A stretch of 64,000 bases of DNA, taken from positions 1-64,000 of IMG/VR virus record IMGVR_UViG_3300035208_005614. One strand, given 5' to 3'. The notes under the pieces are model-generated. The model was not told where the DNA came from. It worked only from the letters and a program-made list of their open reading frames with translations, and did not search any database. The stretch's first letter is position 1; each line of letters starts with the position of its first letter. This stretch comes from a virus. Its lineage: Duplodnaviria > Heunggongvirae > Uroviricota > Caudoviricetes. Made by a program: the position numbers and the translations under genes. Positions 3,388-63,180 of the stretch are shown here, piece by piece.

Positions 3388-4545
3388 TTAGGAAAGAAAG
3401 ATATGAGATGAAGACGTTTTTTCTTTTCTTTTATGATCTATAAGGAAAAAAGCCTGTTTTGGCTTCTCATAATCAGCTTTAATCGAAATTGCAAAGGAAT
3501 TAAACCCTATAACGCTTCCATTACAAATAAAGTTTCCTCCATCTCTAAGTTGATGAAAATGACCAAAAACATCAAGATCCGCGTGTTGAACTTTATTCCA
3601 TTGAGCAATAGCTTTATTTACCGAGATATATATACCTGACATACCTCCATTATATTTCATAAAATGACCATGGTGAAAACGAATTGTCAATCCCCCTACA
3701 TCAATATAAGAGTGATAACTTGTAGGAATTATAAACTTTACACGAGGATTATCTTTAAAAGCATTTGCTAAGACGTGATATAAAACATATTCATAAGAAT
3801 GGCCTGCTTCTGTAGATGGTCGTATCTTCTGGGTATCTCTGGCATGATTTCCAGAATGACAAGGCAAAACGATATTAACATCTGTATTATCTAACAAATA
3901 ATTGATTCCTGCCTCTAAAACACCCTTTACTTCGAGCATTTCTTCGATTGGCGACATGGAATTGTTCTCAAGCGACTCTTCTCTCAAATGACCATTTATC
4001 ATATCTCCTAGCATCGCTAGAACAAGATTGTTGATTTGGCTGTGATGTTTGTAAATTATGATGAGTTTCGCGAGATTTTTGAAGAAAAACTCTAATCTTG
4101 TCTTCGCGATCTTAGGATTGTATTCATTTTTACCATTAACATTGTCAGATTTCACAGTTTCCGCATAATGTATGTCAGAAAGTACCGCAACTGCCGTGAC
4201 CTCCCCGCTAGGATCAGATTTTATTGATTTAATCGTATAAGTATTCGCTGTTCCTACTATTTTAAATGCTTCAATAATAGCTTCAGCATCTGCAAGTTTA
4301 CTACAAACCAAGTCATATTTCTTTTGAGTATGCTTTCCTTCATTCTCTAAGTTGCCCAAAACAACATCTCTTTCTATCTCCTTTTCAGGCGAAAGGTGTT
4401 TATTTTGGGCATTTTTGCGCACAGGAGGAAGATGGAGGGTATTTCTTCCCATTTTTCTGACAGCGTCTGCCGTTTGACCTGTCATTTTTCCTATATCTTT
4501 ATAGGATTTTTTCCCCCAATATCTTTTTATTGTTGATGTAATCAT
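3388..4545 (-). CDS. Calcineurin-like metallophosphoesterase with an N-terminal HTH-like segment
   Basis: Ordered phosphoesterase motifs LSDIHY (DxH), MLGDMING (GDxxxxG), GNHARD (GNH) and GHFHQ (GHxH). The N-terminal 40 aa (KSYKDIGKMTGQTADAVRKMGR) look like a helix-turn-helix. Confidence 0.65.
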   Translation of the reverse strand: MITSTIKRYWGKKSYKDIGKMTGQTADAVRKMGRNTLHLPPVRKNAQNKHLSPEKEIERDVVLGNLENEGKHTQKKYDLVCSKLADAEAIIEAFKIVGTANTYTIKSIKSDPSGEVTAVAVLSDIHYAETVKSDNVNGKNEYNPKIAKTRLEFFFKNLAKLIIIYKHHSQINNLVLAMLGDMINGHLREESLENNSMSPIEEMLEVKGVLEAGINYLLDNTDVNIVLPCHSGNHARDTQKIRPSTEAGHSYEYVLYHVLANAFKDNPRVKFIIPTSYHSYIDVGGLTIRFHHGHFMKYNGGMSGIYISVNKAIAQWNKVQHADLDVFGHFHQLRDGGNFICNGSVIGFNSFAISIKADYEKPKQAFFLIDHKRKEKTSSSHIFLS

Positions 4546-5151: not shown

Positions 5152-5430
5152 TTAAATAATAGCTATTACGTCAGATTCATTTACTAACAAATAACTTTTT
5201 CCTTCCAATTGTATCATAGTACCATACTGAAAAATTATGTTATCTCCAACTTTAACTTCCATGGACTGGATAATTCCATTATCCATCATTCTTCCATTTC
5301 CAGCATAGACAACTTTACCTTTAGAAAAATCACTTTGATCTGTTGTTTTTGAAATAACTAAACCACTTGCTGTCTTCTCTATCGCTTTGTCTGATTCCAC
5401 TATAACTCTTGCTCCTAATATTTTTATCAT
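5152..5430 (-). CDS. groES: Co-chaperonin GroES (Cpn10)
   Basis: 92 aa. IKILGARVIVE..EKTASGLVIS...GKVVYAGNG...VKVGDNIIFQYG...YLLVNESDVIAII matches the Cpn10 pattern along its full length. Confidence 0.85.
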   Translation of the reverse strand: MIKILGARVIVESDKAIEKTASGLVISKTTDQSDFSKGKVVYAGNGRMMDNGIIQSMEVKVGDNIIFQYGTMIQLEGKSYLLVNESDVIAII

Positions 5431-6896: not shown

Positions 6897-7769
6897 TTAA
6901 TAATGACCGACTTTCATTTTTATTGCTTGTAATTTTAACACTTCTTTTTTAAATTGTCCAAAGTTTTTAAAATATCGATAAAGATATCTTCCCTCATTCT
7001 CAGGCAATAACTTTTTAACTCTTAATTCTTTACCTTGCTCCAATCCTCTAAGACCAACTTCTATCAAATGCTCTCTCCATTCCTTTTTAGTCTTAAATTG
7101 AGGATTGTATGTAGAAAAATTTGGTTGCATCTTAAGATAATCTCTACAATATTTAATATAACTTCCATATCTATAATGCATTATTGTTATAATACCTCCC
7201 CCATATTCCTTTTTAATATCTGTAAGAGTAGGAGTTTTACCTAATTTTTTACCTAAACTAATTATTTTGGTCATGATTTGGAGATCACAAATACCATAAG
7301 CATTTTGTCCTTCCTTTGCTTTCTTTTTACCTTTTCTATTTCCTGCTTCTCTATTCTTCTTTTTAAAACCGTAACCATTACTATTTCCTAATTGCATTTT
7401 CCCTTCTTTTTGTAATTGAGTGATAACTTCTGATTGTCTTAATCTAAGTTTCTTTGATTTCAAAGCTGTCTGAGTAAACAAACCGAATTTTGCTCTATAT
7501 TGTTCTCCTGTCATTCCGTGCTTGACTGAAAAGTGTGTAGGTAGTTGTTCAAACCATTTACCACACTCATGACATTGCAATTTACCTGTCTCCGAATCTT
7601 CTGCAAGAACTCCAACAAAACCGAATCCTGTTGAGACTGGCATAAAAGGTGGTTCCCATTTTTTAATATTAATAAAACCTGACTCGGCTTGATCGTAAGC
7701 TATCTTATTCTGTTTTTTATGTGGATATACTGGCATGTTTTTTAATAATGAGTTAAGTCGAGGGGGCAA
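6897..7769 (-). CDS. Ros/MucR-family zinc-finger transcriptional regulator-like protein with a C-terminal extension
   Basis: KLQCHECGKWFEQLPTHFSVKHGMTGEQYRAKFGL closely matches the Ros/MucR CxxC...HxxxxH finger and the following EYRxKWGL motif. About 150 extra C-terminal residues are unassigned. Confidence 0.7.
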   Translation of the reverse strand: MPPRLNSLLKNMPVYPHKKQNKIAYDQAESGFINIKKWEPPFMPVSTGFGFVGVLAEDSETGKLQCHECGKWFEQLPTHFSVKHGMTGEQYRAKFGLFTQTALKSKKLRLRQSEVITQLQKEGKMQLGNSNGYGFKKKNREAGNRKGKKKAKEGQNAYGICDLQIMTKIISLGKKLGKTPTLTDIKKEYGGGIITIMHYRYGSYIKYCRDYLKMQPNFSTYNPQFKTKKEWREHLIEVGLRGLEQGKELRVKKLLPENEGRYLYRYFKNFGQFKKEVLKLQAIKMKVGHY

Positions 7770-8095: not shown

Positions 8096-9751
8096 TTACA
8101 TCATGTCGGGTTTATCTTTTGGTATTTCTGCCATAGCTACTTCTAGGGTTAGGAACATTCCTGCTCCACTAGAAGCATTTTCTAAGGCACATCTCTCTAC
8201 TTTCAATGGATCAATAATTCCACTTTCAATAAGATTATCAACAAAAACATTATTAAAGGCATCAAAACCGCCTCCATCTTCTTGATTTTTAACCTCATTT
8301 ACCACTTCCTCTCCATCTCCTAATCCACAGTTAATAGCAATGTGTTTTAAAGGTATCTCCATTGCTTTGGCAAGAATATCAAAACCTAGAAGCTCATCTA
8401 CCGTGTATTCACCCTCATTTTTGGCCTCTAAAACCCTCGTAGACGCATGAATTAATGAATATCCACCTCCTGGAACTATACCCTCCTCCAAAGCCGCTTT
8501 TACGGCATTTATAGCGTCTTCAACTTTTAGTTTAAGATACTTAGTTTCTGTGTCTGTTGAAGCTCCAACTTTGATTCTTGCAACACCACCAGAAAGTTTA
8601 GCAATTCTTTCCTCAACTTTAAGTTTGTCGTGCTTAGATTCGAGAGTTTCCATTTCTAATTTTGCGGTAGCAATACGCTCATCAATCTTAGTTTTATCTC
8701 CTTTCCCTCCGATAATTGTTGTCTTATCTTTTGTAGAAACAACTCTTTCGGCAGAACCTAGATGATCTAATCCCACTTTATCCATTGTCATACCTAAATC
8801 TTTTGATATAAATGTTGCACCAACTGTAATTGCTATATCTTCCAAATAATCTTTCTTTCTTAAACCGAATCCTGGAGCTTTAACTCCTAGAGTGATAAAT
8901 CCATTTTGGAATCTATTTGCAAGAACTGTTTGAAGAGCGTCTCCAACGATATCTTCAGCGATGATAACTAAATCTTGTTTCCCAGAGGCTTTTAATGCTT
9001 CCATGATCAAATAAACATCTTCAGCAGAACCGAGTTTCAAATCCGTAACTAAGATCGAAACATCTTTAACCACAGATTCTCCACGAGCTGGATCGGTCAT
9101 CATATATGGAGTTATAAAACCTTTATCTAATTCTAAACCTGAAGAAATTTCACTTGTAATTCCAACAACTGGACTTTCCTCCACTGTAATTATTGCATCT
9201 TGTCCTAATTCAGATACTGTCTTTGCAACAACTTTACCTATTTCTTCTGATTTCGAAGAAATGGTTGCAACACGAGTAATCTCTTCATTTCCATTTATTG
9301 GTTTAGAGATAGTTTTTAAGTAATCAACTGCAATCTTTGAAGCTTTATCTATACCAGATTTAACTCCAATAGAATTTACTTTTGCAGGTTTAAGAGAAAT
9401 CAATCTCAAAATCTTTGTCCATAAAGAACCTTTGATTAATTTCATTCCCTCAGTAGCAATAGCCTGATACAAAAGAATTGTGGTTTTTCTTCCATCTCCA
9501 GCGATATCATTTGTTTTTTGTGCTACTTCTTTTTCTAAATTTGCTCCAACATTCTGCATAGAATCTTTTAAAACAATCTCACGTGATATAGAACCGCCAT
9601 CTCCTGTTATTGTTGGTCCACCAAAACCACGATCAAAAACTACATTACGCCCCCTTGGACCTATTGCGGGTTTTATAGAATCACCAACTGCGTCTATACC
9701 GACTTTTAATTCCTTTCTTGCTTCCTCTCCAAATAAAATTCTTTTTGCCAT
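8096..9751 (-). CDS. groEL: Chaperonin GroEL (Cpn60)
   Basis: 551 aa. AKRILFGEEAR...GPRGRNVV..GDGTTT-like region...AVKAALEEGIVPGGG... The C-terminus ends in MM. Collinear with GroEL over its full length. Confidence 0.9.
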   Translation of the reverse strand: MAKRILFGEEARKELKVGIDAVGDSIKPAIGPRGRNVVFDRGFGGPTITGDGGSISREIVLKDSMQNVGANLEKEVAQKTNDIAGDGRKTTILLYQAIATEGMKLIKGSLWTKILRLISLKPAKVNSIGVKSGIDKASKIAVDYLKTISKPINGNEEITRVATISSKSEEIGKVVAKTVSELGQDAIITVEESPVVGITSEISSGLELDKGFITPYMMTDPARGESVVKDVSILVTDLKLGSAEDVYLIMEALKASGKQDLVIIAEDIVGDALQTVLANRFQNGFITLGVKAPGFGLRKKDYLEDIAITVGATFISKDLGMTMDKVGLDHLGSAERVVSTKDKTTIIGGKGDKTKIDERIATAKLEMETLESKHDKLKVEERIAKLSGGVARIKVGASTDTETKYLKLKVEDAINAVKAALEEGIVPGGGYSLIHASTRVLEAKNEGEYTVDELLGFDILAKAMEIPLKHIAINCGLGDGEEVVNEVKNQEDGGGFDAFNNVFVDNLIESGIIDPLKVERCALENASSGAGMFLTLEVAMAEIPKDKPDMM

Positions 9752-11734: not shown

Positions 11735-12292
11735 TTATCTAAACCATTTATAATAGTTCTTCTGTTCATCTCCCCCTTTATCATAATCAGCATGGATTAC
11801 TTCTATTGGAAGCCTATATTGAATGCGATGCCACAACATGATAAGTCTTCCAACACGACCATTTCCATCCTCAAAAGGATGAATATTTTCAAACTGAATA
11901 TGAGACGTTTTTACAACAGATTTAGGAGAAAGTGACTCATCTTGTGAATAAATTAATATATCTTTACAAAAATTTTCAAGATCATCATTTATCAATTGCC
12001 ATGAAATAAAGGGTTTAACGTGCCCCCCTATCCACACATCACAATTACGGTATCTTCCCGCTATATCTGGTCGAAGATCTTTCATTAGAATTTTATGAAT
12101 TTTAAGTATTTTATTAGGTGTTAAATATTTTTGATATTTTAAGTAATTCCATGCTTTTTTTGCCTGAATAAAAGGTTCTAATCCCTCAACTCTTTCAATT
12201 GAATTTGATTCTCTGATAAAATCATCTATATTTTTGTTTCTTGTTGCTCTCTTTTTTAACTTTTGTTTTTTCATATCATTAATTTTTTTCAC
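11735..12292 (-). CDS. Fic/Doc-family protein (AMPylation-type enzyme)
   Basis: Canonical Fic motif HPFEDGNGRVGR. Confidence 0.8.
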   Translation of the reverse strand: MKKINDMKKQKLKKRATRNKNIDDFIRESNSIERVEGLEPFIQAKKAWNYLKYQKYLTPNKILKIHKILMKDLRPDIAGRYRNCDVWIGGHVKPFISWQLINDDLENFCKDILIYSQDESLSPKSVVKTSHIQFENIHPFEDGNGRVGRLIMLWHRIQYRLPIEVIHADYDKGGDEQKNYYKWFR

Positions 12293-12632
12293 AAAATAAC
12301 TCTACTGTGATATTTTTATAAATTCCTATTGACATATTTGTATAATTAGGTTTTAGTATATTTGCTCGATGTGTTGGAGAATCCATAAGAGCTTTCTCCT
12401 CTGAAATAGCACTAGGATAATTCTTTGCTAGATTCTCCCCTATATAATCACAATCCAAATTAACAAATGAATTTTTCCATCCTAAATGAGACCACTGTCC
12501 TGTATCATACAAATACTTTGCTCTTACTCCTGCCATTTGTGCCATCTGTGGGTACGTCTGAAGAGGGGCTAAATTTGCTCTAGCTCTATCATTGTTTGTC
12601 AGCATAAATAATAAGAGTAATTGTGATATCAT
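12279..12632 (-). CDS. CAP/SCP/PR-1 (YkwD-like) domain protein
   Basis: GENLAKNYPSAISEEKALMDSPTHRANILKPNYTNMSIGI matches the CAP-domain C-terminal motifs (GEN..., W..S.GHR.NIL...IG). Hydrophobic N-terminus. Confidence 0.6.
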   Translation of the reverse strand: MISQLLLLFMLTNNDRARANLAPLQTYPQMAQMAGVRAKYLYDTGQWSHLGWKNSFVNLDCDYIGENLAKNYPSAISEEKALMDSPTHRANILKPNYTNMSIGIYKNITVELFCEKN

Positions 12633-13935: not shown

Positions 13936-14250
13936 TTATTGGTATCTTGCGATACATTCCTGTATCATTTTACTCTTATAATTTTCGTCTTCGCACTGTT
14001 TTTTTGCCTCAGTATTTGTGATCGATCCACAAATATCTGAATCTTTTCCTGTATCAACCACAGGTTCATCTGGTTCTGGAATATATGCTACTGCGGTCTG
14101 ATTAAATCCACTAACTTTGGTTGATGTAGTAGTCGAATTTGCTTTATTTTTTGCTCTAGCACTTTCAATACTCGCCATCACTACTGATGAAAAAATACCT
14201 ATAATTGCTATTACAACCAACATTTCTATTAACGTAAAACCTTTTTTCAT
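13936..14250 (-). CDS. Type IV pilin-like protein (prepilin N-terminal cleavage/methylation domain)
   Basis: N-terminus MKKGFTLIEMLVVIAIIGIFSSVV is the class-III signal (G|FTLIE) followed by a hydrophobic helix. Confidence 0.7.
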   Translation of the reverse strand: MKKGFTLIEMLVVIAIIGIFSSVVMASIESARAKNKANSTTTSTKVSGFNQTAVAYIPEPDEPVVDTGKDSDICGSITNTEAKKQCEDENYKSKMIQECIARYQ

Positions 14251-14251
14251 T

Positions 14252-14512
14252 TTATTTTTTTATATACCACGCTTTTAATCTAGGTAGATTATCTAAGACC
14301 AACCTTATCTGCTCCTTAGTAATCTTGCCTTGTCCTATCCCGTCTTGTAAAAGAACTACGATAGCTCTTTGAGTTAATTGAGACTTCTGAAGTTTTTCGA
14401 ATCCTTCAGAAACTGAAATTATGCTTTGAGCTAAAAGTTCTATCGACTCGGGATTCTCTTCATTCTTGACTACTCTAATATTTTGTTTTCCCATATTATT
14501 TTGTCTCTTCAA
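14252..14512 (-). CDS. Hypothetical protein
   Basis: 86-aa ORF tightly packed between neighbours. Confidence 0.4.
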   Translation of the reverse strand: MKRQNNMGKQNIRVVKNEENPESIELLAQSIISVSEGFEKLQKSQLTQRAIVVLLQDGIGQGKITKEQIRLVLDNLPRLKAWYIKK

Positions 14513-14646
14513 TTGCTAAAAGAATCTTTTCTGCCACAGCACTAAGAAGAATTCCATCATGTGCCTTATTTGGAACACAGAATTCTCTTAAAACCGCTAT
14601 TATTTTTTCTTTTTTTTCTTCATTCATAATTTTAATTTATTAATTA

Positions 14647-15163: not shown

Positions 15164-16081
15164 TTATTTTAATTGGATTACTGGAATCGTGTTTCCTCCC
15201 ATCATCGTTGATGGATAATGTCCGTCCCATTGCTTGATTGCTTGTAATGCTACGTAATCAGCTCCTCCTTGTGAGTTTATAGCTTGTGCTGAAATTCTTA
15301 TCGCTTCTGCATCTGCTTTTGCTTTTTCTACTGTTTGCTGTGCTTCATATTGAACTTGAACTAATTTGTTCTTTTGAGCTTCAGCGTCTTGAACTGCTGT
15401 AACTTTAGCTTCAATTGATTTGCTAAATGCATCTGAGAAAGCAAAGTTTGTAACTGAGAATCTTTCCATAACTGCATTCTTTTCAACAAATTGTGTTGCA
15501 AGTAAAGCATTTACTTTGTCTGAGAATTCTGCTCTTTTTGTAACCAATTCTTCTGCTGTGTATTGAGCTGATGTAGATTTAACTATTTCTCTAATCATCG
15601 GTTCAATAACATTTGCTTGATAATTCTCTACTGAACTATATTGAGAGAATATTTCTGTTACTTTTGTTGCATCTACGTGATAATTTACAACTACTCCAAT
15701 TGCTACATCCTGAAGATCTTTTGATGCTCCAAAAAGATTTGTAGATTGATTTTTCTCATCTCCTGTATCTCCGCTCTTATCGTAATCAATTGTTTGAGTC
15801 TTAACGCTCATCAAATGAATTGATTCTAACCATGGGAGTTTGAAATAAAGTCCTGGTTGAACTGTACCTACTACCTTACCTAGATTTGTTTTAACTCCTA
15901 CTTCTCCAGCACTAACTGTACCAAATGATCCGAAGATTGTTGGTAATGCGATAAATAAAGTAATAAAAGCAATTGCTATATGTGTAATAACTTTTGCTAG
16001 ATCTACTTCAGTACCGTAATCTGTTTTCATTGAATAATCGAACATTCCTCTTTTTTTATTTTCCATTTTTATATTTTTCAT
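15164..16081 (-). CDS. SPFH/band-7 (prohibitin/HflKC-like) domain membrane protein
   Basis: N-terminal TM (IAIAFITLFIALPTIF) followed by GEVGVKTNLGKVVGTVQPGLYFKLPW, a band-7-like core, then a long A/Q/E-rich coiled-coil tail. Confidence 0.7.
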   Translation of the reverse strand: MKNIKMENKKRGMFDYSMKTDYGTEVDLAKVITHIAIAFITLFIALPTIFGSFGTVSAGEVGVKTNLGKVVGTVQPGLYFKLPWLESIHLMSVKTQTIDYDKSGDTGDEKNQSTNLFGASKDLQDVAIGVVVNYHVDATKVTEIFSQYSSVENYQANVIEPMIREIVKSTSAQYTAEELVTKRAEFSDKVNALLATQFVEKNAVMERFSVTNFAFSDAFSKSIEAKVTAVQDAEAQKNKLVQVQYEAQQTVEKAKADAEAIRISAQAINSQGGADYVALQAIKQWDGHYPSTMMGGNTIPVIQLK

Positions 16082-16367: not shown

Positions 16368-16395
16368 AGTATACTCCTTTCAAAATACTTGTCAA
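16368..16395 (-). promoter_or_regulatory. Sigma-70-like promoter TTGACA-N16-TATACT (copy 3, leftward)
   Basis: Minus-strand reading cTTGACAagtattttgaaaggagTATACTtgg, in the divergent region. Confidence 0.65.
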
Positions 16396-24905: not shown

Positions 24906-26006
24906 TTGAGCAAGTCGCTAGGTGTAAAGACACCTAAAAATATGAAAAAAAACATGATTGGAGTTATAGGAGACATGCACATGAAAGATGACCTATCATA
25001 TGCAGACAATATATCGGATAGACGAGTTTCAGAAAAAAAATCTATTTTAGATTTTATTGTTGAATCATTCAAGGACTGCGATCATGTCGTATTTCTAGGA
25101 GACAATTTTAACAGTAGAAATAATAGTTCTGAGACGAATAGAGAGTTCGTGGAATTTTTAGAGAGATTTAATGATAAACATTTATACATAATATCTGGGA
25201 ATCATGAGAAAAAAGGTAATGGTAAGACAGCAATTGATTTTTTAGGGGAAATTAAAAAAAGTAATTGGCATATCTTTACTAAACCAGGAACAGTTACATT
25301 AGGAATTAAAAATCCATCAGTTGGAGTTTCTACAGCAAAAAAGGAAAACTTAAAATTGGATTTTCTTCCGTACATGTTAAATCAAGAATTAGAAGTGGAA
25401 AATACTGAAGAAGCAGTTAAAAAAATAATAAAGAATTTAGAAGGAGGAGATATATTATTTGCACATCACGCGATATCAGGAACAGTATTTAATGGAATTT
25501 TGACAGACACTCTTAAAGAGATTGTTCTACCAGAATATGATTTAAAAGATGAATATAAACTTATTGTAGCAGGACACATACATGTACCTTGCCAATACGG
25601 TAAAATACTTATCACTGGGAATGTATTTACGACAGAAGTAGGAGATAAAGAGAAGTTCATTTACAAAATTAATACAGATTTAGAAATAGAAAAAATTAAG
25701 GTACCTGCAAGACCCATAGGTAAAATAGAAAACCCTACAGAAGAACAATTGTCAAGTATACCTAATAATGCTATTGTTAAAGTCATATTAACAGATAAAA
25801 AAGTCAATCTTGAAACATTGAAGGAACAGTTATCTAGATTTGATGCATCACTTATTATTGAAGATTATCCTAACGAAAGGGTAAAGGCTCATATAGAAGA
25901 AGGAGCATTTGATTTCAGCATAGAAGCAGTACTTAAACTTTATGCAGAACAAAAGAAAATTGATCACGAAAAGTTACTTAAAGGATTGCAATTAATAAAT
26001 GGCTAA
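24906..26006 (+). CDS. sbcD: SbcD/Mre11-family nuclease
   Basis: Phosphoesterase motifs GVIGDMH, VVFLGDNFN, IISGNHE, FAHHA and VAGHIHV in the canonical order. The start is probably the internal MKKNMIG. Confidence 0.8.
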   Translation: MSKSLGVKTPKNMKKNMIGVIGDMHMKDDLSYADNISDRRVSEKKSILDFIVESFKDCDHVVFLGDNFNSRNNSSETNREFVEFLERFNDKHLYIISGNHEKKGNGKTAIDFLGEIKKSNWHIFTKPGTVTLGIKNPSVGVSTAKKENLKLDFLPYMLNQELEVENTEEAVKKIIKNLEGGDILFAHHAISGTVFNGILTDTLKEIVLPEYDLKDEYKLIVAGHIHVPCQYGKILITGNVFTTEVGDKEKFIYKINTDLEIEKIKVPARPIGKIENPTEEQLSSIPNNAIVKVILTDKKVNLETLKEQLSRFDASLIIEDYPNERVKAHIEEGAFDFSIEAVLKLYAEQKKIDHEKLLKGLQLING

Positions 26007-26574
26007 ACAAAAAATAATAACTTTAGGACTAGATTTATCACTCACGGGAACGGGGGTAATTATTCTAGAAAATGGAAAGATAATTAAGAGGATCTTGATT
26101 AAATCAAAACCAGTTGGAGATCTTCCGATTGATGAACTTAAAAGAATTCAGAAGATAGTATCGGATATCGAAAACACATTTCAAGACAAGAATGGAACTG
26201 GACCGTACATTAACGTCGCTGTTATAGAAGGATTAGCCTTCATGGTGCGTAATGCAACAGCATTAGTTCAGTTATCAGCCTTGAATTATATGACGAGAGC
26301 TTTGTTAAAAGATCATGGTATACCGTTTGTAATCGTAGCCCCCACAAGTCTTAAAAAATTTGTAACAGGAAGTGGAGCAAGCAAGAAAGATGTTATGTTG
26401 ATGGAAACGTTTAAGAGATATAATGTCAGTATTTTAAATGATAACGAGTGCGATGCATTTGGACTAGCGAAGATAGGAGAAGCATTATTAATGACTTCTG
26501 GCCCAAGATGTAGTTTACCTATCTTTCAACAAGAAGTGTTAGATTTATTAGATAAGCAAATCAAAAATATATGA
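25999..26574 (+). CDS. ruvC: RuvC-like Holliday junction resolvase
   Basis: IITLGLDLSLTGTGV resembles the RuvC N-terminus (ILGIDPGSRVTGYGV). C-terminal NECDAFGLAKIGE resembles the DAADALA motif. 191 aa. Confidence 0.6.
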   Translation: MAKQKIITLGLDLSLTGTGVIILENGKIIKRILIKSKPVGDLPIDELKRIQKIVSDIENTFQDKNGTGPYINVAVIEGLAFMVRNATALVQLSALNYMTRALLKDHGIPFVIVAPTSLKKFVTGSGASKKDVMLMETFKRYNVSILNDNECDAFGLAKIGEALLMTSGPRCSLPIFQQEVLDLLDKQIKNI

Positions 26575-26798
26575 AGAATGAATTAAAAAATAAATTGTTG
26601 ACAAAAGAACAAGTAGATGTCGTAAAAGAAATGATCATAGATTCTATGAAAAGTGTTTATATCGATCAGGGTATCAATCCTGGAGAAGCCTTTCATATAG
26701 TTTCTGGCGGAATAGCAGATAAGATCATAGTAAATTCACAAAAAGCTCTTATTCAAACAAATGTTTTGCTAAAGCAGTCAAAAATAGCAAACCTTTAA
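26571..26798 (+). CDS. Hypothetical protein
   Basis: 75-aa ORF overlapping the upstream gene by 4 nt. Confidence 0.4.
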   Translation: MKNELKNKLLTKEQVDVVKEMIIDSMKSVYIDQGINPGEAFHIVSGGIADKIIVNSQKALIQTNVLLKQSKIANL

Positions 26799-26826
26799 AA
26801 ACTAAGAAGTCTAAATAATTAAAAAC

Positions 26827-27111
26827 ATGCCAGACAACAATGTAATAAAATCAATCGTAACAAATACATGTCCACACTGTGGAAAGGAGATTTATATTGA
26901 AAGCCAAATGACTCCTCCAGTGATTAATTCTGTATATACAGCAGAAGCTGTCGCTAAAGCAAAACAAGATTGTATTGAAAGAATTGGGACTTTGGCAATT
27001 GATGATGAAAAAAAGGTCGTAGTAATTAAGTGGTTAAATGATCCTGAGACTATATTTGGACCAAATGAAGTTGAAAGTATAATCTTGAGCTTATTGAAAC
27101 CGCAAGAATAA
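26827..27111 (+). CDS. Hypothetical protein
   Basis: 94-aa ORF with a CPHCGKEIY motif. Confidence 0.4.
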   Translation: MPDNNVIKSIVTNTCPHCGKEIYIESQMTPPVINSVYTAEAVAKAKQDCIERIGTLAIDDEKKVVVIKWLNDPETIFGPNEVESIILSLLKPQE

Positions 27112-27112
27112 A

Positions 27113-27394
27113 ATGAAAGTAAATGAATTGATGTTTTCTTTTTTAACAGAACATAAGGAAGCGAGGGAAAGAAAAAATAAGAACCGATGTATAGCTTATG
27201 TGGTTTCTAGGATGCACCCTTCCTCAGATATTAAAATAGAATTATTAGAGGATATGGTAGGAGAAATCTTAACCATGGATCGAGCTTGGAGAAAGACGTT
27301 AGAAGATAATTCAAATTTGAGAGGAACTGATTATAAAGAGAAGGAAAGATTAGAGAAAAAAGTACAAAAAGATTTGGGATATCCAGTAAAATAA
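27113..27394 (+). CDS. Hypothetical protein
   Basis: 93-aa ORF. Confidence 0.4.
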   Translation: MKVNELMFSFLTEHKEARERKNKNRCIAYVVSRMHPSSDIKIELLEDMVGEILTMDRAWRKTLEDNSNLRGTDYKEKERLEKKVQKDLGYPVK

Positions 27395-27407
27395 ATTATA
27401 AACTAAA

Positions 27408-29519
27408 ATGATATTATTAAATGAAATTACAATTAAAAACTTCCTTTCTCACGAGGACACAACAATTCATTTCAATGAAAATGAGAAACTTTTGGTTGAT
27501 GGTAAGAGCGGTAGTGGTAAATCTTCCATCACAGAAGCTAATCTCTGGGTTCTCTACGGCAAAGGTAGAACCGACAATCGTTCCCTTGTTAGAAAAGGGA
27601 CAAAAAGCGCATCTGTCTCTCTTAAACTTGATGATGGACCAGTCTCAACGATCATCACACGTACTGTTTCCAGCGCAGGAAAAAATGTACTTACAGTTAC
27701 TCAAAGGAAAGGGAAAGATAAGTATCTTCCGATCGAGAGGACTGGGCTTAAGGACATGCAGGACTTTATTGAAAGAGAATACCTCAAAGCCTCTTACGAA
27801 CTCTTCACGAATAGCGTTGCGTACCCTCAAGAAAATGAAAATTCCTTTGTCAAAGCAACTGCCTCTAAAAGAAAAGATCTCCTCCTCGAAATAGTTCGAG
27901 CAGGTAATTTTGATGAGTTATATGAGAAAGCGCGCAAAGCACTTAATGCAAATGAAACAGGTGTCTCTAACGAAATGGTTAGAATCACTTTCTTAGAGAA
28001 TTCAATCAAAAATTCAGAGATTATAGCTTCAAAATACGACTCTCATAAAGAAGCCTATGATATGACTACAAAACAAGTTGAAGAAGAAGAGAAGATAGAA
28101 AAATCTTTAGAGGGGCAATTAAACAACGTTTCTCAGATATCAAAGATGATTACTAGTGAAACGAATACAAAAAATCTTCTAGAAAAGACTCTTAATAGTT
28201 CGAACACACAATTACAACTTTGTCAAAAAACTATCAAAGATCATGAAACTTTTGATATAAGTATCCATTATAAAAATGTAGAAGAAATTGGAGTATTTTC
28301 TAAAGAAGCAGACAAGATTGAACAAATTCTTTTTGAAAATTCAAAAGCACAACAACATATTAATGAACACATGTCAAATAGACCGAGTGTTTTTGATTAC
28401 AAAAAAGACATTGAGGACATTAATAAAAGTCTTATATCTTTAATGAAAGAAATGGGTAAATGCCCAGCGGGAGATAATTGTCCTTTTCTAGTTCCAGTAA
28501 AGGGTCAAATAGACTTCCTTTCAGGACAACTAGTTGAGAAAGCAGACAAATCAGTGGCTGAACAAGAGGCTTTTGAGAAATGGGAAGCTAGAGGTAAGAC
28601 TCTTACTCCCATAACGGACACTACAGATTTATATAATAAACTAAAGGACATTCGATCTAAAATCGAGGTGCTTTCTAAATCAAAAGATGTCATTACCCAG
28701 TACGAATTAGTCAAAAATAGTATCGGAGATTATAAGACAAAAGAGATCTCTTTAAACATAGAAATTGATCAAACTCGCATGGAAATCATTAAAATTGAAA
28801 AAGGTATCAGAGAATTAAATGAAGACCTTGTCAAGTATGATAGTAATAAAATAAACACCGAATTATCAACGATAAGAGTATTAAAGAGAAAAGCTCAGAT
28901 AGAGGTGGAAAATAGTGCCTCTGGAATGGCCATGGCTACAAATGCCCAAAAGGATATTAAGGAGGCCTCTACAGCCCTAAAAACAGCCTTAGCTGGGGTT
29001 TCTAAAGCTAATGAAGACAAGGAATCACTTGAATTAATTAAAGAAGCTTTTAGCCCTCGTGGAGTTAAGGCGGTTATCATTGATTACTTGGTTCCTCAGT
29101 TGGAGGAAAGAATAAACGGTATTCTTAAACAGATGTCTGATTTTAGAATAAGACTCGACACCCAGAAGGCTCTGGTTGATGATGAGGGCGTAAAAGAGGG
29201 CTTATTCATTACGGTTATAAATGATCACGGAGAGGAGTTACCATTCCAGTCATATTCGGGCGGGGAGAAAGTTAAGATCACTGTAGCAATTTCTGAAGCA
29301 CTAGCTTCCTTGATGAGCCAAGTAGGTTTTAGAATTATGGATGAGAATATAGTCAGTTTAGATAGAGATAGCACGGAAGGTTTCGTTAAGGTCCTTACGA
29401 ATCTTCAAGAGAAGTTTCCTCAGTTGCTTGTAATCTCGCACCTTCAGGAAGTTAAAGATATTTTTGAGAAGAAGATTACAATTATTAAAGCAAATGGTAT
29501 AAGCAAAATTTATGAATAA
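27408..29519 (+). CDS. sbcC: SbcC/Rad50-family ATPase
   Basis: N-terminal Walker A GKSGSGKSS, central zinc-hook-like CPAGDNCPF, C-terminal signature YSGGEKVK and D-loop ENIVSLDRDS. Long central coiled coil. Confidence 0.8.
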   Translation: MILLNEITIKNFLSHEDTTIHFNENEKLLVDGKSGSGKSSITEANLWVLYGKGRTDNRSLVRKGTKSASVSLKLDDGPVSTIITRTVSSAGKNVLTVTQRKGKDKYLPIERTGLKDMQDFIEREYLKASYELFTNSVAYPQENENSFVKATASKRKDLLLEIVRAGNFDELYEKARKALNANETGVSNEMVRITFLENSIKNSEIIASKYDSHKEAYDMTTKQVEEEEKIEKSLEGQLNNVSQISKMITSETNTKNLLEKTLNSSNTQLQLCQKTIKDHETFDISIHYKNVEEIGVFSKEADKIEQILFENSKAQQHINEHMSNRPSVFDYKKDIEDINKSLISLMKEMGKCPAGDNCPFLVPVKGQIDFLSGQLVEKADKSVAEQEAFEKWEARGKTLTPITDTTDLYNKLKDIRSKIEVLSKSKDVITQYELVKNSIGDYKTKEISLNIEIDQTRMEIIKIEKGIRELNEDLVKYDSNKINTELSTIRVLKRKAQIEVENSASGMAMATNAQKDIKEASTALKTALAGVSKANEDKESLELIKEAFSPRGVKAVIIDYLVPQLEERINGILKQMSDFRIRLDTQKALVDDEGVKEGLFITVINDHGEELPFQSYSGGEKVKITVAISEALASLMSQVGFRIMDENIVSLDRDSTEGFVKVLTNLQEKFPQLLVISHLQEVKDIFEKKITIIKANGISKIYE

Positions 29520-29956: not shown

Positions 29957-30490
29957 ATGGAATCAACAGAACAAACAGTAAGTACACATACTAAAGGAGA
30001 AATTGAGGCACAAAAATACCTTAAACGCCTTGTTGCGCCCCACACAAAAGTAAGTAAAGAAGTTACAAATAAGGATCTAGATAAGGTAGTGGAAGAAGTT
30101 AAGATATTATATAACTTGTGCTATGTACAAAACGGGTTATATCTAGGAGCATATGCTATGCATCACTCACAGATCGAAGATAAAGATCCTATGAGTTTCT
30201 TTGTTATTGCAGATAAAAGAATCATTATAAACCCAAAGATAGTTAAACATAGTAATTATACCAAAGACTCTAAGGAACAATGTATGTCTTTTGCGAATGA
30301 AGGTCCAGTTGTTGTTCAGAGATGGCAAAAGATAGAACTTGAATATCAAACTATAATGACTGACCCAGAACATGATGGCAAATTTAAATTATCTGATATA
30401 ATTAAGGAATCATTAAGTGGTTTTGAAGCGTTTGTTATGCAACATGAAATCGATCATGGTAATGCAAAGTTTATTTATCAATTAAAATAA
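29957..30490 (+). CDS. def: Peptide deformylase-like protein
   Basis: Motif 3 QHEIDHGN (QHExDHxxG), motif 2-like EQCMSF (EGCLS) and a weaker motif 1 GLYLGAYAM. 177 aa. Confidence 0.6.
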   Translation: MESTEQTVSTHTKGEIEAQKYLKRLVAPHTKVSKEVTNKDLDKVVEEVKILYNLCYVQNGLYLGAYAMHHSQIEDKDPMSFFVIADKRIIINPKIVKHSNYTKDSKEQCMSFANEGPVVVQRWQKIELEYQTIMTDPEHDGKFKLSDIIKESLSGFEAFVMQHEIDHGNAKFIYQLK

Positions 30491-31652: not shown

Positions 31653-34600
31653 TTATTCGTTAGCTAAAATAGGTAATCCTCTCACAGTACCCCATTTTGT
31701 TTTTACTCCTTTGATCTGTTTCTCATGAGCATTAGCTGCTTTCTTTGCTTCATCCTGCGTACTGCCTAACCATAGAGATCCATCAGAGGCGTGAACATAA
31801 AAAGTTTTACCTCCCGTTGTATCATTAAACTTTCCTGACTTCATCTCATTAAGAGCGTCTTTAATCGCTTGAAGTTTTTTGTTATCAGTTGTGTTGATTA
31901 ACCCTGCTTTTAGTTTTTGATATTCACTTTGCTTAACTTTTCCATTACTAGAAGTTGCTCCTTGTGGTGCATAAGCCTGGTATTGATATGGAGCTTGTAG
32001 AACCTTAGTTAAAGAACCTTGATACCTATCAGGATCGTTTACAGCTCTATTAATAGCTGTGTTTATAATATGTTTAGTCTCAAAAGCTTGTTTGTCGGGT
32101 CTGTTACTTACTTCTCCATAAAGAATTGCAGCAGCCTCATCTATATCGCTATCCTTTACTTTAATTCCTCTTACATCATAAGTAGGTTCTTCTTTTGCTC
32201 TAAAAGTTGTAGTCAATCCTGGAAGTAATTTTTCTTTAACATTTCCCCAAGCATTAGAAATGCCAGTCCCTATGTCATCCATAAGACCCCCCTGTCCATC
32301 TGGACCTCCCTTACCTTCTTTTACTGTTTCTACTACATTCTGTGCGCTTGGAGTAATAACTTGAGAAAACGGATCAAATGATTCAGACCCTTGGTAATAA
32401 GTATTTGCTACTTTAGGAGAAGCATCTATTAATTCTCTATAAAGATAGATAAACTTCGGTTTATTATATATTTCTGCCCAAGATATATTTGCCAACTTAT
32501 CTGTTGCTGCCCAATATGAAATATTATCTAGATCAGCTTCTGTGTAATTACCTTCTTCTAAATTCTTAAGGAAGTAATTCTCAACTCTTTGTTTTGCTTT
32601 TTCTCTTATAGTTTTTCCTTCCTTCCCTGGGTTTGTTTGATATTCTAATTTAGCTTTTTTAGCAATACTAATAATATCCTTTAATTTTGAATTATTAGGA
32701 TTGTATTTATCTTTAAATGCTTGAGAAACAGCTTTTGCTCCTTCTTTGTGTATAATAACTTTTTGTTCTCCAGTAACATCATAAGACTTTAATTTTGAAG
32801 CAGCGAGTGTCTTTTCTTGTAATGGAGTTAATACAGTTCCTGCTTTTTTAAGGTTATTGTAATATTCGATAGTAGGAGCTAAACCTGTTTGTTTGATTCT
32901 TTGATTAGTTTTAGCATCTACTTTGCCTAGGAAAATATCATTAACTGTGTTTGCAGTCTCTCCAAGCGCTTTAATACCATAAGGTTTTTGTATATTTTTA
33001 AGAGCCCCAGTTAATGAAATTGGGTTAAGCGTTTCTCCACTATTAACGCTCCAAAGTTCTTTAGTAGCCCAGTTAGGATCGTCATTTGTTCTTTTAAGAA
33101 TATCGTCAGATTTCTTTGAGTCTACAGCTTCTCTTTGCGCCTGAGAAATCAATTGTCTTTCTTTTGTTCCCCATTTTGGAGTTGCAGTAAAATCCTCCTT
33201 AGAATTATAAGTAGTTCCTTTTTCTACAACATTGCCGTTAGAAAGTATTTCGTACTGACTGTATTTTTTAGGATCAGATTCTCCATAAACCTTGATAGTA
33301 ATATTATTATCTTTTACCTCATCCATAATACGTGAAGCCATGGAAATCATACTTGTTTGGTCATCTCCAACAAGTTGATTTTTTATAACTTTTTTAATAG
33401 TTTTATTTGTAGCAAGTTCAGGTGTGGATGATTTAACTTCAGTAAATGGAGTAGCTAGAGATCCTCTTTTAACGATAGCATCGACTTCGGCTTGTGACAT
33501 CCCACCTTCGCCTATTTTAGTTACGTGCATAGTATCAGCATCTTGATCTCCTTGTAGAATAATTCTTTCATTGAATGGGCTAACAATACCGTTCTCTTCT
33601 GCGAGACTTGTGTTACCTGATTTTGTACCGTCTACAACTCTAAGAACAGCAAGGTTGTTAATATCATAAGAAGGATCTCTACTTACAACTACGTAATCAC
33701 CTTCTTTAACTCCGAGACTTTTAATTTGCTCAGATCCTAAAATTATTTCGTGGTTATTGACATATCTAGTTTTTCCTGTTCCATCATAATCAGCCTTAAT
33801 AGGAGCAACCATCGTTACCATTGTACTATTTTTATAAGTAGGGTTTATTGCATTCTCCATAACTAAATTCTTTAGTATTTTGTTTATTTCAAAATGAAGA
33901 TTGTTTTTTGCAGCACTTAATTCTCCGAAAGATAATTGTTTAGCTCCTTGGAATAGATTCTCTTTTTCTAATTGAGGATATTTTTCAACTGCTTTATCAA
34001 ATACTTCTTTAAGCTCAGCATTGCTTTTTGTTTTTGCTATATCATCTATAAGAGTCTGTAGATCTTTAACGTCCTGATTAACTTTAATAAGTTTATTTTC
34101 AGATACACCAACATCAGTACTTAAGAATTTTCTTTCTCCAGAAGGAGATATTTTACTAACACTTCCTGTAGTTGATCTGTCTTTGCCATAAATATCAGAA
34201 AGAGGAAGATTAAAATCTCCGAGTTTTGGACCTATTTTAGCATTAGAATCAAAACTGATTACATCATTTTTACCAATTTCAATACCGTGAGTTTCTTTAT
34301 AACTATTTCTAATTGCCTCATCAGCTTTAATGGCCTGGCCTTTGTGATAAGATTTTTCTCCATTAAGAGTTGTATCAAGAATTATTTTAACAGATCCTTT
34401 ATGTCTATTTTTATCATAACCTAAACCTTCTATAAGTTTGTCAAAAGCATCCTCTCCAAGGATAAAAGGACCGTCTTGTGTCTTACCTCCGTGAAATGAT
34501 TCTACAGAAGCTTTTGCTTCTACCCCCTCTGGATTTTCAAACTTACTTGTATCTATTTTAAATTCTGGTGTATCACCTATAGTTTCAGCTTTAAGTGTTC

Positions 34601-61584: not shown

Positions 61585-61656
61585 CATAGTACTAGCTCTT
61601 CGAGTAGGATTCGGACCTACGATCTATCGCTTAACAGGCGATGGCTTTACCACTAA
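61585..61656 (-). tRNA. tRNA-Asn (anticodon GUU)
   Basis: Hand-folded cloverleaf: acceptor TCTTCGA/TCGAAGA, D GCTT/AAGC, anticodon stem ATCGC/GCGAT with loop CUGUUAA, T-arm GTAGG-TCCGAAT-CCTAC. Coordinates within about 2 nt. Confidence 0.75.
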
Positions 61657-61661
61657 GCTAT

Positions 61662-61732
61662 CGAAGAATATGCTGGGGAAGATGGAATCGAACCACCATT
61701 AATCGCTTCAGAGGCGATCTTACTACCTTTAT
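61662..61732 (-). tRNA. tRNA-Gln (anticodon CUG)
   Basis: Acceptor TGGGGAA/TTCCCCA, anticodon stem ATCGC/GCGAT with loop CUCUGAA, T-arm GGTGG-TTCGATT-CCATC. Confidence 0.7.
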
Positions 61733-61750
61733 AAGATTCCCCAATTTGTA

Positions 61751-61822
61751 CTTTCTAACTGCTGGGGATCTTGGGTTCGAACCAAGCTACACGGCTTCAA
61801 GGGCCGTTGAACTACCAACTAT
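61751..61822 (-). tRNA. tRNA-Gln (anticodon UUG)
   Basis: Acceptor TGGGGAT/ATCCCCA, D GAAT/GTTC, anticodon stem ACGGC/GCCGT with loop CCUUGAA, T-arm CTTGG-TTCGAAC-CCAAG. Confidence 0.8.
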
Positions 61823-61835
61823 TCTAATCCCCAAT

Positions 61836-62198
61836 TTACCATTTTTTACCTTTTTTTCTAGCAGTTAATCTCCACTTTTTTCTAACCTCATTATAAGCAT
61901 TCATACAAAGTCTACATCTACATTTATGATGTCTATACATTGAATACATTCCATGTTTTGATTCCCCGTTATCAATCTTATTCTTTTCTTTGTGACATAT
62001 ATGACAAAGTAATTGACACTTAGAAACTTCTAATAAAACTTTTTGTATAGAATAAGACCATTTTTCTGTTATGGTAAATTTTTTTGTTTTAGGATCAATA
62101 TGATCAAACTCTAATCCTTCTTTACTTCCACAAACAACACATTTTCCTCCTAATAATTCTATTAATAAACTAATTCTTTTTTTATAATGTCTTATCAT
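61836..62198 (-). CDS. HNH endonuclease embedded in the tRNA array
   Basis: CVVCGSKEGLEFDHIDPKTKKF...LLCHICHKEKN is a canonical HNH pattern (C..C...DHI.P.....N..LC..CH..K). Confidence 0.6.
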   Translation of the reverse strand: MIRHYKKRISLLIELLGGKCVVCGSKEGLEFDHIDPKTKKFTITEKWSYSIQKVLLEVSKCQLLCHICHKEKNKIDNGESKHGMYSMYRHHKCRCRLCMNAYNEVRKKWRLTARKKGKKW

Positions 62199-62313
62199 TA
62201 GTATATCCTACCATAATACTTTAAAATGTCCTACCCTGCGGGCCGAGAAGGACTTGCACCCTCATTTTCCGCTTTGGAGACGGAAGTGTTTCTATTACAC
62301 TATCAACCCAATG

Positions 62314-62386
62314 GGTAACTATTGGGAATTGAACCCAACCTAAGAGTTTCACAAACTCCTGTGCGAACCGATACACTACAGTCACC
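62314..62386 (-). tRNA. tRNA-His (anticodon GUG) with an encoded G-1
   Basis: Extra 5' G opposite the C73 discriminator, acceptor GTGACTG/TAGTTAC (two G-U pairs), anticodon loop UUGUGAA, T-arm TTGGG-TTCAATT-CCCAA. Confidence 0.75.
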
Positions 62387-62389
62387 ATG

Positions 62390-62473
62390 TGCGTAAAAGA
62401 GGACTCGAACCTCTAACTCCTTTCGAAGACAACATTTTAAGTGTTGCGCGTATACCACTTCCGCCATTCACGC
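62390..62473 (-). tRNA. tRNA-Leu (anticodon UAA), class II
   Basis: Acceptor GCGTGAA/TTTACGC, anticodon stem CAACA/TGTTG with loop CUUAAAA, long variable arm of about 16 nt, T-arm AGAGG-TTCGAGT-CCTCT. Confidence 0.8.
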
Positions 62474-62477
62474 ATTG

Positions 62478-62551: not shown

Positions 62552-62555
62552 CCTG

Positions 62556-62626: not shown

Positions 62627-62670
62627 TTAATGTGACCGTCATCGACAAGAAACCGACACTACGTCACATG

Positions 62671-62754: not shown

Positions 62755-62848
62755 AGAGTTCCACAATTAATTGCTAAGTTAATTAGCCTATCAAGTACCT
62801 TAAAAAAGGTACAGTGGAACTATATTGTCCAATCCGAAGATTGGAGTG

Positions 62849-63176: not shown

Positions 63177-63180
63177 TTGG

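Follow-up and report, generated by a model that had tools for sequence, protein, structure and literature searches.

A phage prepilin-like protein, probably lacking a pilin head, linked to an upstream prohibitin-type SPFH gene

The short gene considered here lies at 13936..14250 on the minus strand of a 64,000-nucleotide stretch (positions 1 to 64,000 of the IMG/VR virus record IMGVR_UViG_3300035208_005614, Caudoviricetes), which is referred to below as the window. It encodes a pilin-like protein of 104 amino acids (aa), in which a genuine class-III (prepilin) signal, as judged by curated models, precedes a tail that is likely to lack the pilin head domain. The gene is found downstream of a gene for a prohibitin-type SPFH protein, and this linkage is near-obligate and directional. 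The explanation preferred here, tentatively and at somewhat less than even confidence, is that the protein is a pilin mimic which, together with a phage SPFH scaffold at the host membrane, would disturb type IV pili in a manner dependent on the host prepilin peptidase. The linkage, the likely absence of a head, the conserved leader, the pattern of selection and the position of the gene in the early region of the phage all support this reading.

The leader and the architecture of the protein

An earlier note on this DNA had described the class-III leader as unmistakable, and the curated models bear this out. The N-terminus (MKKGFTLIEMLVVIAIIGIF; full protein MKKGFTLIEMLVVIAIIGIFSSVVMASIESARAKNKANSTTTSTKVSGFNQTAVAYIPEPDEPVVDTGKDSDICGSITNTEAKKQCEDENYKSKMIQECIARYQ) begins with MKKG/FTLIE (the slash marks the predicted cleavage site) and lies above the cutoffs of both Pfam N_methyl (PF07963; E=1.6e-8, 34.2 bits against a gathering score of 21.2) and NCBIfam TIGR02532 (E=8e-10, 38.1 bits against 16.3). 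The motif occurs only once in the 64-kb window (regular-expression scan, six frames). On the evidence of homologues down to 39% identity and a ratio of nonsynonymous to synonymous substitution rates (dN/dS) of 0.29 against a 70%-identical allele, the gene is real. Its parts are as follows.

13936..14250, minus strand: pilin-like gene; leader MKKG at residues 1-4, predicted cleavage at G4/F5, hydrophobic alpha-1 helix at about residues 5-37
13936..14250, minus strand, continued: variable disordered linker at about residues 38-72, conserved C-terminal Cys motif at residues 74-103

The same note had described the mature domain as about 75 aa long, Thr-rich and ending with two Cys residues 12 apart, and each of these statements stands in part. 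The length is correct for the portion past the hydrophobic helix (~75 aa), whereas the mature protein after the predicted cleavage comes to 99 aa. The richness in Ser and Thr is confined to a short run (NSTTTST), with Thr making up 9/99 and Ser 10/99 of the mature residues. As for the Cys residues, the spacing of 12 holds for the invariant C74 and C86, between which a loop is possible, but the count is three; the conserved C99 follows after a further 13 residues and makes the number odd. The C-terminal motif of the window protein reads C..I..N....C...Y...MIQECI.RY (residues 74-103).

The suggestion that the protein is a minor pilin or pseudopilin fared less well, as the specific models cover only residues 2 to ~50 and score far under their cutoffs, the beta-sheet head is absent from both structural models and the tail has no cellular pilin relative among 1.84 billion representative proteins. 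Among the NCBIfam equivalogs, GspH reaches 42.2 bits against a cutoff of 80, GspG 33.4 against 88.85, ComGE 28.1 against 49 and ComGC 25.8 against 75. The phrog_3433 ‘pilin’ match (E=2.3e-9) spans residues 2-89, mainly by way of the N-terminus, and the nearest solved sequences, the truncated Geobacter PilA-N pilins, align over residues 2-41 only. The hydropathy window of the hydrophobic segment covers residues 1-31. Structure prediction with AlphaFold2 was carried out on two alignments and gave the following, with confidence expressed as the predicted local distance difference test (pLDDT).

4-sequence alignment: mean pLDDT 56; helix at residues 7-34; residues 35-71 below 50; helix at residues 80-103
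9-sequence alignment: mean pLDDT 65; helix at residues 7-37 (77-92); coil at residues 38-79 (block means 45-58); helix at residues 80-103 (66-73)

Neither model contains a beta strand, and the predicted template modelling scores (pTM) are 0.24 and 0.28. The models thus make it likely that the head domain is absent, with the low pTM leaving room for a small fold. This head-less reading is supported by pilins that share the leader (K(K/Q)GFTLIE) in metagenomes: among the matches listed, about 95 such open reading frames (ORFs) from 80 loci are almost all 125-330 aa long and continue as the usual pilin helix and head (ARxKARDAxR...ALELYY), a helix pattern from which the window protein diverges past about residue 35. 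An NfeD domain (PF01957) is not matched by Pfam in the pilin-like protein, whose C-terminus is predicted as a single helix and not a beta-barrel.

The tail family

Full-length relatives are few. A word-indexed search returned only four proteins.

P0001: identical to the window pilin-like protein
P0002: 70% identity
P0003: 45% identity; Hainich groundwater 0.1-um contig
P0004: 39% identity; C-terminally shorter

Contigs as long as 101 kb carry the identical protein. In a HMMER search of 1.84 billion representative proteins, the tail by itself (residues 41-104) gave nine matches, namely the protein itself, three large repeat proteins (matched through the low-complexity linker only) and five small proteins (P0017-P0021, 93-130 aa). 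All five carry the GFTLIE leader and share the C-terminal motif C..I..(D/N)....C....Y...MI(Q/E)(E/Q/K)CI.RY. As this search was blind to the leader and every small match possesses it, the tail was never found without the leader; nor was any cellular pilin relative of the tail present among the 1.84 billion representatives. Two additional members come from IMG/VR (L033, 119 aa; L037, 102 aa). The tail family therefore amounts to about 10 rare protein clusters, every one with the same leader. In the family alignment (A5), G4, F5, T6, L7, I8, E9, I16, C74, C86 and Y91 are invariant, and C99 is kept in all members except the shorter P0004. A tblastn search of deposited phage genomes (INPHARED) with the pilin-like protein gave no match.

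Linkage to a prohibitin-type SPFH gene

The partner of the pilin-like gene is located upstream on the same strand. The association of the two genes, the key finding of the analysis, had escaped the earlier note.

15164..16081, minus strand: prohibitin-type SPFH/Band 7 membrane protein of 305 aa, with one N-terminal transmembrane (TM) segment and no Cys

The protein matches PF01145 (E=7.7e-32) and phrog_200 (E=8e-50), and a profile built from nine homologues retrieves Prohibitin-2 (8rrh, E=3e-41) and HflC (1e-14) from the PDB; the HflC and HflK models of NCBIfam are matched weakly. By these profile matches, it is a member of the prohibitin family. An SPFH gene is upstream and on the same strand in 10 of the 11 members of the tail family, usually 0-5 nucleotides (nt) away, and the contig of the eleventh (P0018) is too short to judge.

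Window lineage: SPFH at 15164..16081 upstream; three small ORFs intervene
P0002 (L006): SPFH upstream, same strand
P0003 (L005): SPFH upstream, 90-nt gap
P0004: SPFH stop overlaps the pilin-like start
L033 and L037: SPFH upstream, 5 nt
P0019 (L193): SPFH upstream, 1 nt between the called genes
P0020 (L194): SPFH upstream, overlapping
P0017 (L195, L196): SPFH upstream, 1 nt between the called genes
P0021 (L198): partial upstream ORF that matches the final 33 SPFH codons of the window, at 100% protein and 89% DNA identity

Such spacing suggests that the two genes are probably translationally coupled, and co-transcription is likely. The association extends past the tail family. A leader-seeded search of IMG/VR yielded 26 loci, seven of which have an SPFH homologue (37-51% identity) directly upstream of a pilin-like ORF of only 42-83 aa. 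In the opposite direction, an SPFH-seeded survey, made without reference to the pilin-like gene, found a class-III ORF within 1.5 kb downstream in 15 of the best 80 viral loci (within 300 nt in 14) and upstream in none of them; in the best 80 cellular-genome loci there was none on either side. The metagenome leader scan, used as a background control, yielded generic leaders and no new tail-family members among the matches listed, and none of its ~95 same-leader ORFs has an SPFH gene upstream.

The dependence is nevertheless one-sided, since the pilin-like gene almost never occurs without SPFH and most phage SPFH genes occur without it, including close relatives at 62-67% identity. Prohibitin-type SPFH genes are present in at least 129 deposited phage genomes, from many hosts and all at <=36% identity to the window SPFH, and on ~200 IMG/VR contigs; the four deposited records that were inspected (three of them cultured phages) carry no pilin-like partner. 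Such one-sidedness fits an adaptor or accessory role. Moreover, comparison of the window with five other contigs (L005, L193, L194, L195 and L198; blastn, tblastx) shows only the SPFH and pilin-like genes in common, with different flanks, apart from a weak GroEL match in L005; the window entering this comparison is only a part of the phage genome. The pair thus behaves as a module and not as inherited synteny.

Across 21 SPFH-linked pairs, the leader and helix of the pilin-like partner have a mean pairwise identity of 70%, against 49% for SPFH, and the tails are unalignable. F(+1) and T(+2) are kept in 21/21 although the search pattern permitted alternatives; G(-1) and E(+5) were required by that pattern, so their invariance in this set is uninformative. 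The tails measure only 13-101 aa. Their Cys counts are even in the short forms (0, 2, 4, 6) and odd in the motif family (3, 5, 7), and Cys-rich tails fit an extracytoplasmic location. The family proposed here combines a GFTLIE leader, a tail of ~100 aa or less without a head and a position directly downstream of a prohibitin-type SPFH gene in a phage context, and the window gene has all three, with a lineage-specific insertion of three ORFs between the pair.

Variants of the pair were also encountered. Directly after SPFH, L041 (~3875-4087) has a small single-TM ORF whose two-Cys tail is like that of the leader-bearing L018 and L052, which suggests that the cleavage site has decayed with anchor and tail kept. 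The corresponding small ORF of L051 has the degenerate motif RGFSLGELLVV, and those of L039, L048 and L057 are single-TM ORFs with no prepilin motif or a degenerate one. In L007 (5094-5921) and L010 (1021-1848), the W-D-G-x-L-P...VPF tail at the C-terminus of SPFH is replaced by Cys-x3-Cys (GSKCTSYCYG and GQACTSYCGL), and 2 and 4 Cys are present in the respective pilin-like partners. On the phage-looking contig L194 (2303-5039), the P0020 pair adjoins two methyl-cycle auxiliary genes, for S-adenosylhomocysteine hydrolase and for SAM synthetase. L005 encodes an Acb3-family (anti-CBASS) protein (7051-7734) as well as NinG and HNH proteins, in support of its phage origin.

Strain variation and a lineage-specific insertion

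Three small ORFs separate the pair in the window lineage.

14252..14512, minus strand: small soluble ORF of 86 or 80 aa
14496..14627, minus strand: small soluble ORF of 43 aa
14647..15159, minus strand: single-TM protein of 170 aa (TM 5-37) with a Ser/Gly/Trp/Asp-rich repeat tail (SGSWGSDS...)

The 170-aa protein (repeat tail SGSWGSDSYSSSDSGSWG...) stands between the SPFH and pilin-like genes in this lineage only and is absent from that place in L005, L193, L194, L195, L198, L033 and L037. The two soluble ORFs (14252..14627) are called in L001, L002, L004 and L006. None of the three matched a family in the Pfam, PHROG, NCBIfam and PADLOC scans.

A co-occurring strain is represented by L006, recovered from a sample that also yielded an identical copy of the pilin-like gene. 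Its SPFH and three small ORFs, the two soluble ones included, encode the same proteins as their counterparts in the window (100% identity), and just 1 nucleotide differs in ~1.8 kb. Along L006 1-2529, divergence sets in abruptly near window position 14340; the pilin-like gene is 70% identical, the peak falls within it (24/50 bases at 14000-14050, 48%) and the next gene differs by 5-18%. Synonymous divergence (dS) is ~0.30 in the flanking genes. Within the pilin-like gene, the blocks behave differently.

Residues 1-33: dN/dS 0.20
Residues 34-83: dN/dS 0.41, with dS saturated at 1.16
Residues 84-104: dN/dS 0.03

Judged from these alleles, the linker is hypervariable or swapped by recombination, and the C-terminal motif is strongly constrained. 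Recombinational exchange of the allele would fit the excess of divergence, synonymous sites included, and its abrupt onset near 14340, and a hypervariable linker next to a motif with a dN/dS of 0.03 is the pattern of selection that fits the preferred reading. Positive selection on the linker is unsupported (dN/dS 0.41, with dS saturated at 1.16). Hypervariability driven by a diversity-generating retroelement was rejected, as the window holds no second copy or template repeat and no reverse transcriptase domain was detected among the ORFs scanned; the substitution spectrum is mixed and not specific to adenine (of 78 substitutions, 32 show A in the allele of the window and 24 in that of L006, with no A involved in the others).

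Genome context and phage identity

That the gene is phage-encoded, as the earlier note had held, agrees with the rest of the window. The gene content (GC ~33%) identifies the source as a large tailed phage: an SU10-type head-tail adaptor (PF24175, E=2.4e-19), PHROG matches to an exonuclease, SbcCD and an M23 peptidase, and an array of 15 tRNA genes, alongside a SNF2 helicase, a PrimPol-DnaB protein, a DnaA/IstB-like ATPase, RecA, Fic and a CAP-domain protein.

The pilin-like gene belongs to a tightly packed leftward string, with a 1-nt gap to either neighbour. The string starts at a divergent intergenic region (~16.3-16.5 kb), from which the replication genes run rightward, and the GC skew changes sign near 16 kb, coincident with the strand switch. 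At the head of the string lies the best sigma-70-like promoter match of the window, among sites that are consensus matches only and whose number is not above shuffled expectation.

16368..16395, minus strand: sigma-70-like promoter match, TTGACA-16-TATACT, 11/12

The structural block occupies 31-60 kb and contains M23 and L-Ala-D-Glu peptidase domains at 40-43 kb. By its position, 17 kb from this block and with the Fic, CAP, GroEL and replication genes as neighbours, the pilin-like gene would lie in the early or host-interaction region and not among the virion genes. In the window, neither a gene for a prepilin peptidase (PilD) nor one for pilus assembly was detected; it encodes no polytopic membrane protein of PilD or PilC size, and no T2SSE-type ATPase was detected among the ORFs scanned. 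Host machinery would therefore be needed. Likewise, no integrase or repressor was seen in the window. Among the PADLOC models, none matches the pilin-like or SPFH protein, and only the nearby Fic protein, whose gene shares the leftward string with the pair, was matched. Two further proteins of the window were looked up by exact sequence and gave no match. The remaining features of the window are listed below.

5152-5430, minus strand: GroES, 92 aa (Cpn10 by Pfam for L001)
8096-9751, minus strand: GroEL, 551 aa
11735-12292, minus strand: Fic-domain protein (PF02661 E=3e-15; PADLOC SoFic 2e-20 and PDC-S04)
12279-12632, minus strand: small CAP/SCP (cysteine-rich secretory protein family) domain protein, E=7e-8, early region
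24906-29519, plus strand: SbcD/SbcC nuclease pair, in the rightward replication/recombination block
29957-30490, plus strand: peptide-deformylase-like protein (phrog_2890 E=5e-11), in the same rightward block
31653-38825 and 52468-60510, both minus strand: giant ORFs of 2390 aa and 2680 aa flanking the structural block; no Pfam match at E<=0.01
61595-63783, minus strand: 15-tRNA array (Asn, Gln x2, Trp, His, Leu x3, Thr, Phe, Cys, Tyr, Met, Ser, Asp)

Between GroEL and GroES, an NAD-dependent epimerase and a ROS/MucR-type protein are encoded. The giant ORFs may be internal virion or fibre proteins. The tRNA array is situated at one end of the window, where local GC rises to ~0.40.

Probable host

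The cellular proteins nearest to the window SPFH (51-66% identity) belong for the most part to metagenome-assembled genomes (MAGs) of Patescibacteria, namely Saccharibacteria, Minisyncoccia (a 189-kb contig), Paceibacterota, Magasanikbacteria, Peribacteria and a 529-kb Patescibacteria contig, some of which may be mis-binned phage. Hainich groundwater 0.1-um fractions are the source of one homologue and of several pilins with the same leader, one of which is on a contig that is 535 kb long according to its name. A bacterium of the Patescibacteria, or candidate phyla radiation (CPR), is thus the likely host on the strength of these relatives. The available text of two sources describes CPR bacteria as needing type IV pili in episymbiosis, motility and competence (PMC11623550, PMC10633639), and the expectation of a host that relies on such pili accordingly holds for the probable host group.

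Proposed mechanism and alternative explanations

The pair is envisaged as a two-gene phage module in which a prohibitin-like SPFH protein is joined by a short prepilin-like protein as the accessory half. Early in infection, the pilin-like protein would enter the host cytoplasmic membrane with its N-terminus inside and its C-terminus outside, and host prepilin peptidase would cleave it after Gly4. The canonical pilin alpha-1 helix, keeping Phe1 and Glu5, would then retain it in the membrane. Being head-less, it would form no normal filament, and its pilin helix could engage the host pilin pool or the assembly platform. The small, constrained, Cys-containing C-terminal helix would, on the external face of the cytoplasmic membrane, tie it to the co-expressed SPFH ring or cage. 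Assembly or dynamics of the type IV or competence pilus would thereby be disturbed, with superinfection exclusion and/or loss of pilus-dependent functions as the expected outcome. In Pseudomonas PilA mutants, Glu5 is needed for assembly and methylation, not for cleavage or membrane anchoring; its retention here therefore argues for an interaction of the pilin type. A bolder form of the same idea, considered rather unlikely, is a two-part device of CPR phages in which the head-less mimic, matured by the host prepilin peptidase, targets an SPFH cage to the host pilus system, so that membrane pilins or the assembly platform are sequestered within the cage.

Several points weigh against the proposed disturbance of pili. 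Cleavage, membrane topology, SPFH contact and the pilus effect are all inferred, and the host assignment is indirect. The topology of SPFH (C-terminus out) is taken from homology to prohibitin and HflK/C only, its flanking charges being ambiguous. Since Cys is missing from the window SPFH, no disulfide can link it to the odd Cys of the pilin-like protein, and an intermolecular bond of this kind is ruled out. The C-terminal helix is not significantly amphipathic (hydrophobic moment, p=0.14), for which reason an amphipathic helix was dropped as the interface, and, given the low pTM values (0.24, 0.28), the protein may contain a small folded domain. Further, the small TM protein that follows SPFH in L041, L051, L048 and L057 either has a degenerate leader or lacks one, which suggests that pilin features are not always needed, and on one contig (IMGVR_UViG_3300009285_011519, L018 and L042) a 70-aa prepilin-like ORF is ~8 kb from SPFH.

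The leader-poor loci speak for a different role, that of a small anchored accessory subunit of the phage SPFH complex (in membrane stabilisation, protease control or lysis timing), with the leader as a mere anchor or export device. This explanation, somewhat unlikely yet the nearest competitor of the pilin mimic, accommodates the tight linkage (usually 0-5 nt, consistent with translational coupling), the SPFH genes followed by a small single-TM protein without a prepilin motif in L039, L048 and L057, and the Cys tail kept in L041 despite a decayed leader. The 129 deposited phages from many hosts with SPFH and without the pilin-like gene are in keeping with a core SPFH function independent of pili, and small membrane proteins such as NfeD are common partners of SPFH proteins. 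An anchor with no further role would be expected to drift, however, whereas leader and helix are better conserved than SPFH itself (70% against 49%), with F1, T2 and E5 kept, and a charged Glu within a membrane anchor is costly unless used. Nor is the partner NfeD-like, as it lacks PF01957, is helical and not an OB-fold, and lies downstream; in SPFH-NfeD operons, NfeD is usually upstream of SPFH. Since most close SPFH relatives have no such partner, it is not an obligate subunit.

The protein might instead be a genuine pilus subunit, that is, a minor pilin or pseudopilin that the host peptidase processes and that, as suggested in the earlier note, is incorporated in the type IV or competence pilus of the host (perhaps at its tip). 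There it would mask or replace a receptor in the manner of P-FimU, with SPFH a separate matter. The canonical leader with F1, E5 and G14, the phrog_3433 match over residues 2-89, the ComGC/ComGE-type models at the N-terminus and a C74-C86 loop that could equal the pilin D-region all speak for it, as does the fact that short pilins do assemble, the Geobacter PilA-N pilins (61-90 aa) having the nearest solved N-termini. An exposed linker that is hypervariable between near-identical strains would also resemble the diversity of P-FimU, ascribed in the available text of its source to phage-versus-phage competition (PMC12952977). The explanation is improbable all the same. Both models are without a beta-sheet head, the equivalog matches are far under cutoff and limited to the N-terminus, and the tail has no cellular pilin homologue among the 1.84 billion representatives, unlike the host-resembling P-FimU and P-PilA; relatives with SPFH linkage and tails of 13-30 aa cannot be surface subunits, the 10/11 linkage is left unexplained, and in the variable part (dN/dS 0.41) positive selection is not detectable. 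The pilin mimic, the SPFH subunit and the structural minor pilin overlap in part. A lysis protein (a holin- or antiholin-like single-TM protein) or a virion structural protein is very improbable, although a small size, a single TM segment, an N-in/C-out topology and a charged tail are features of class III holins, an Amidase_2 gene lies ~3 kb upstream in the P0004 contig and an SPFH homologue is near rIIB in one Ackermannviridae phage. No endolysin gene adjoins the pair in the window or in most other contexts, the peptidase domains of the window are in the structural block, and a holin needs no conserved prepilin cleavage site; the distance of 17 kb to the structural module and the early, non-structural surroundings likewise make the virion component raised in the earlier note unlikely.

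Implications

If the bolder form of the mechanism holds, a pilus needed by episymbionts for attachment, motility and DNA uptake would be switched off. This would be a novel route to superinfection exclusion or to takeover of the host, and it would provide a first function for the widespread but uncharacterised phage prohibitins. To our knowledge, phage prohibitin-type SPFH genes have no assigned function, and a defined, directional partner provides an experimental handle on it. With a CPR host, the target would be the pilus by which ultra-small episymbionts attach to hosts of their own, move and take up DNA, and the module could affect both symbiosis and gene flow in groundwater communities. 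The pair is small (~1.3 kb) and can be tested in heterologous hosts.

Comparison with known systems

SPFH proteins assemble into rings or cages anchored in the membrane, inside which client membrane proteins are enclosed, and they are often co-transcribed with a small membrane partner. The known systems (PHB1/2, HflK/C with FtsH, SPFH-NfeD operons) are like the present one in their prohibitin-family component (E=3e-41). No SPFH partner with a prepilin leader was found in the literature searched; the partner in the window is not NfeD-like, and the pairing is restricted to viral loci in the surveys made (0/80 among the nearest cellular loci). On the pilin side, Geobacter PilA-N (61-90 aa; PDB 2m7g, 7tgg, 9egp), ComGC and ComGE have the nearest solved or modelled N-termini and demonstrate that a pilin can be very short and yet functional. 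Their genes sit in cellular pilus operons alongside those of partner pilins, whereas the match of the window protein extends over residues 2 to ~42 only and is under the family cutoffs.

Among viral systems, a filamentous-phage protein of Pf inhibits type IV pili and prevents superinfection, according to the available part of its source (PMC8764522). It too is a small phage protein, with superinfection exclusion as the outcome that is proposed here, but it is unrelated in sequence and has no prepilin leader as described there. The haloarchaeal provirus SNJ2 encodes two pilins, PilA1 and PilA2, which form the dominant surface filaments (PMC12426801). They are similar in being virus-encoded and in hijacking the secretion and assembly machinery of the host, as is presumed for the window protein; they differ in being full pilins that act as receptor for another virus in an archaeal host, and the available text of that source does not mention SPFH (PMC12426801).

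Closer parallels are found in the accessible portion of a single account (PMC12952977). It reports truncated PilA-like proteins (~60 N-terminal residues) in six virulent Pseudomonas phages, which share a head-less pilin N-terminus in lytic-type phages and the same hypothesis, that is, incorporation without binding sites or inhibition of assembly. These originate from the major pilin of the host, the role assigned to them is hypothetical too, and that portion of the text mentions no SPFH partner (PMC12952977). It also describes P-PilA in Xylella prophages and P-FimU of F10-like Pseudomonas prophages (Sztanko et al. 2026), the latter being incorporated into pili and blocking tip-binding phages (PMC12952977). 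Like P-FimU, the window protein has a phage-encoded pilin N-terminus, would depend on host machinery, is diverse between related phages and is proposed to exclude other phages. For P-FimU, the similarity to a host minor pilin is full-length and incorporation into pili has been demonstrated, whereas the window protein is apparently head-less with a tail for which no cellular homologue was found, and its gene is coupled to SPFH in the early region of a large phage with no integrase or repressor seen in the window.

A literature search found no published description of an SPFH or prohibitin gene paired with a pilin in phages. The idea of a phage-encoded prepilin-like protein is itself already known; the head-less tail family, the coupling to SPFH as a two-gene phage module and the probable CPR host appear to be new. 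To the phage pilin-like proteins that act as receptor decoys against other phages, shown only recently (2025-2026), the locus adds an apparently head-less version coupled to a membrane scaffold.

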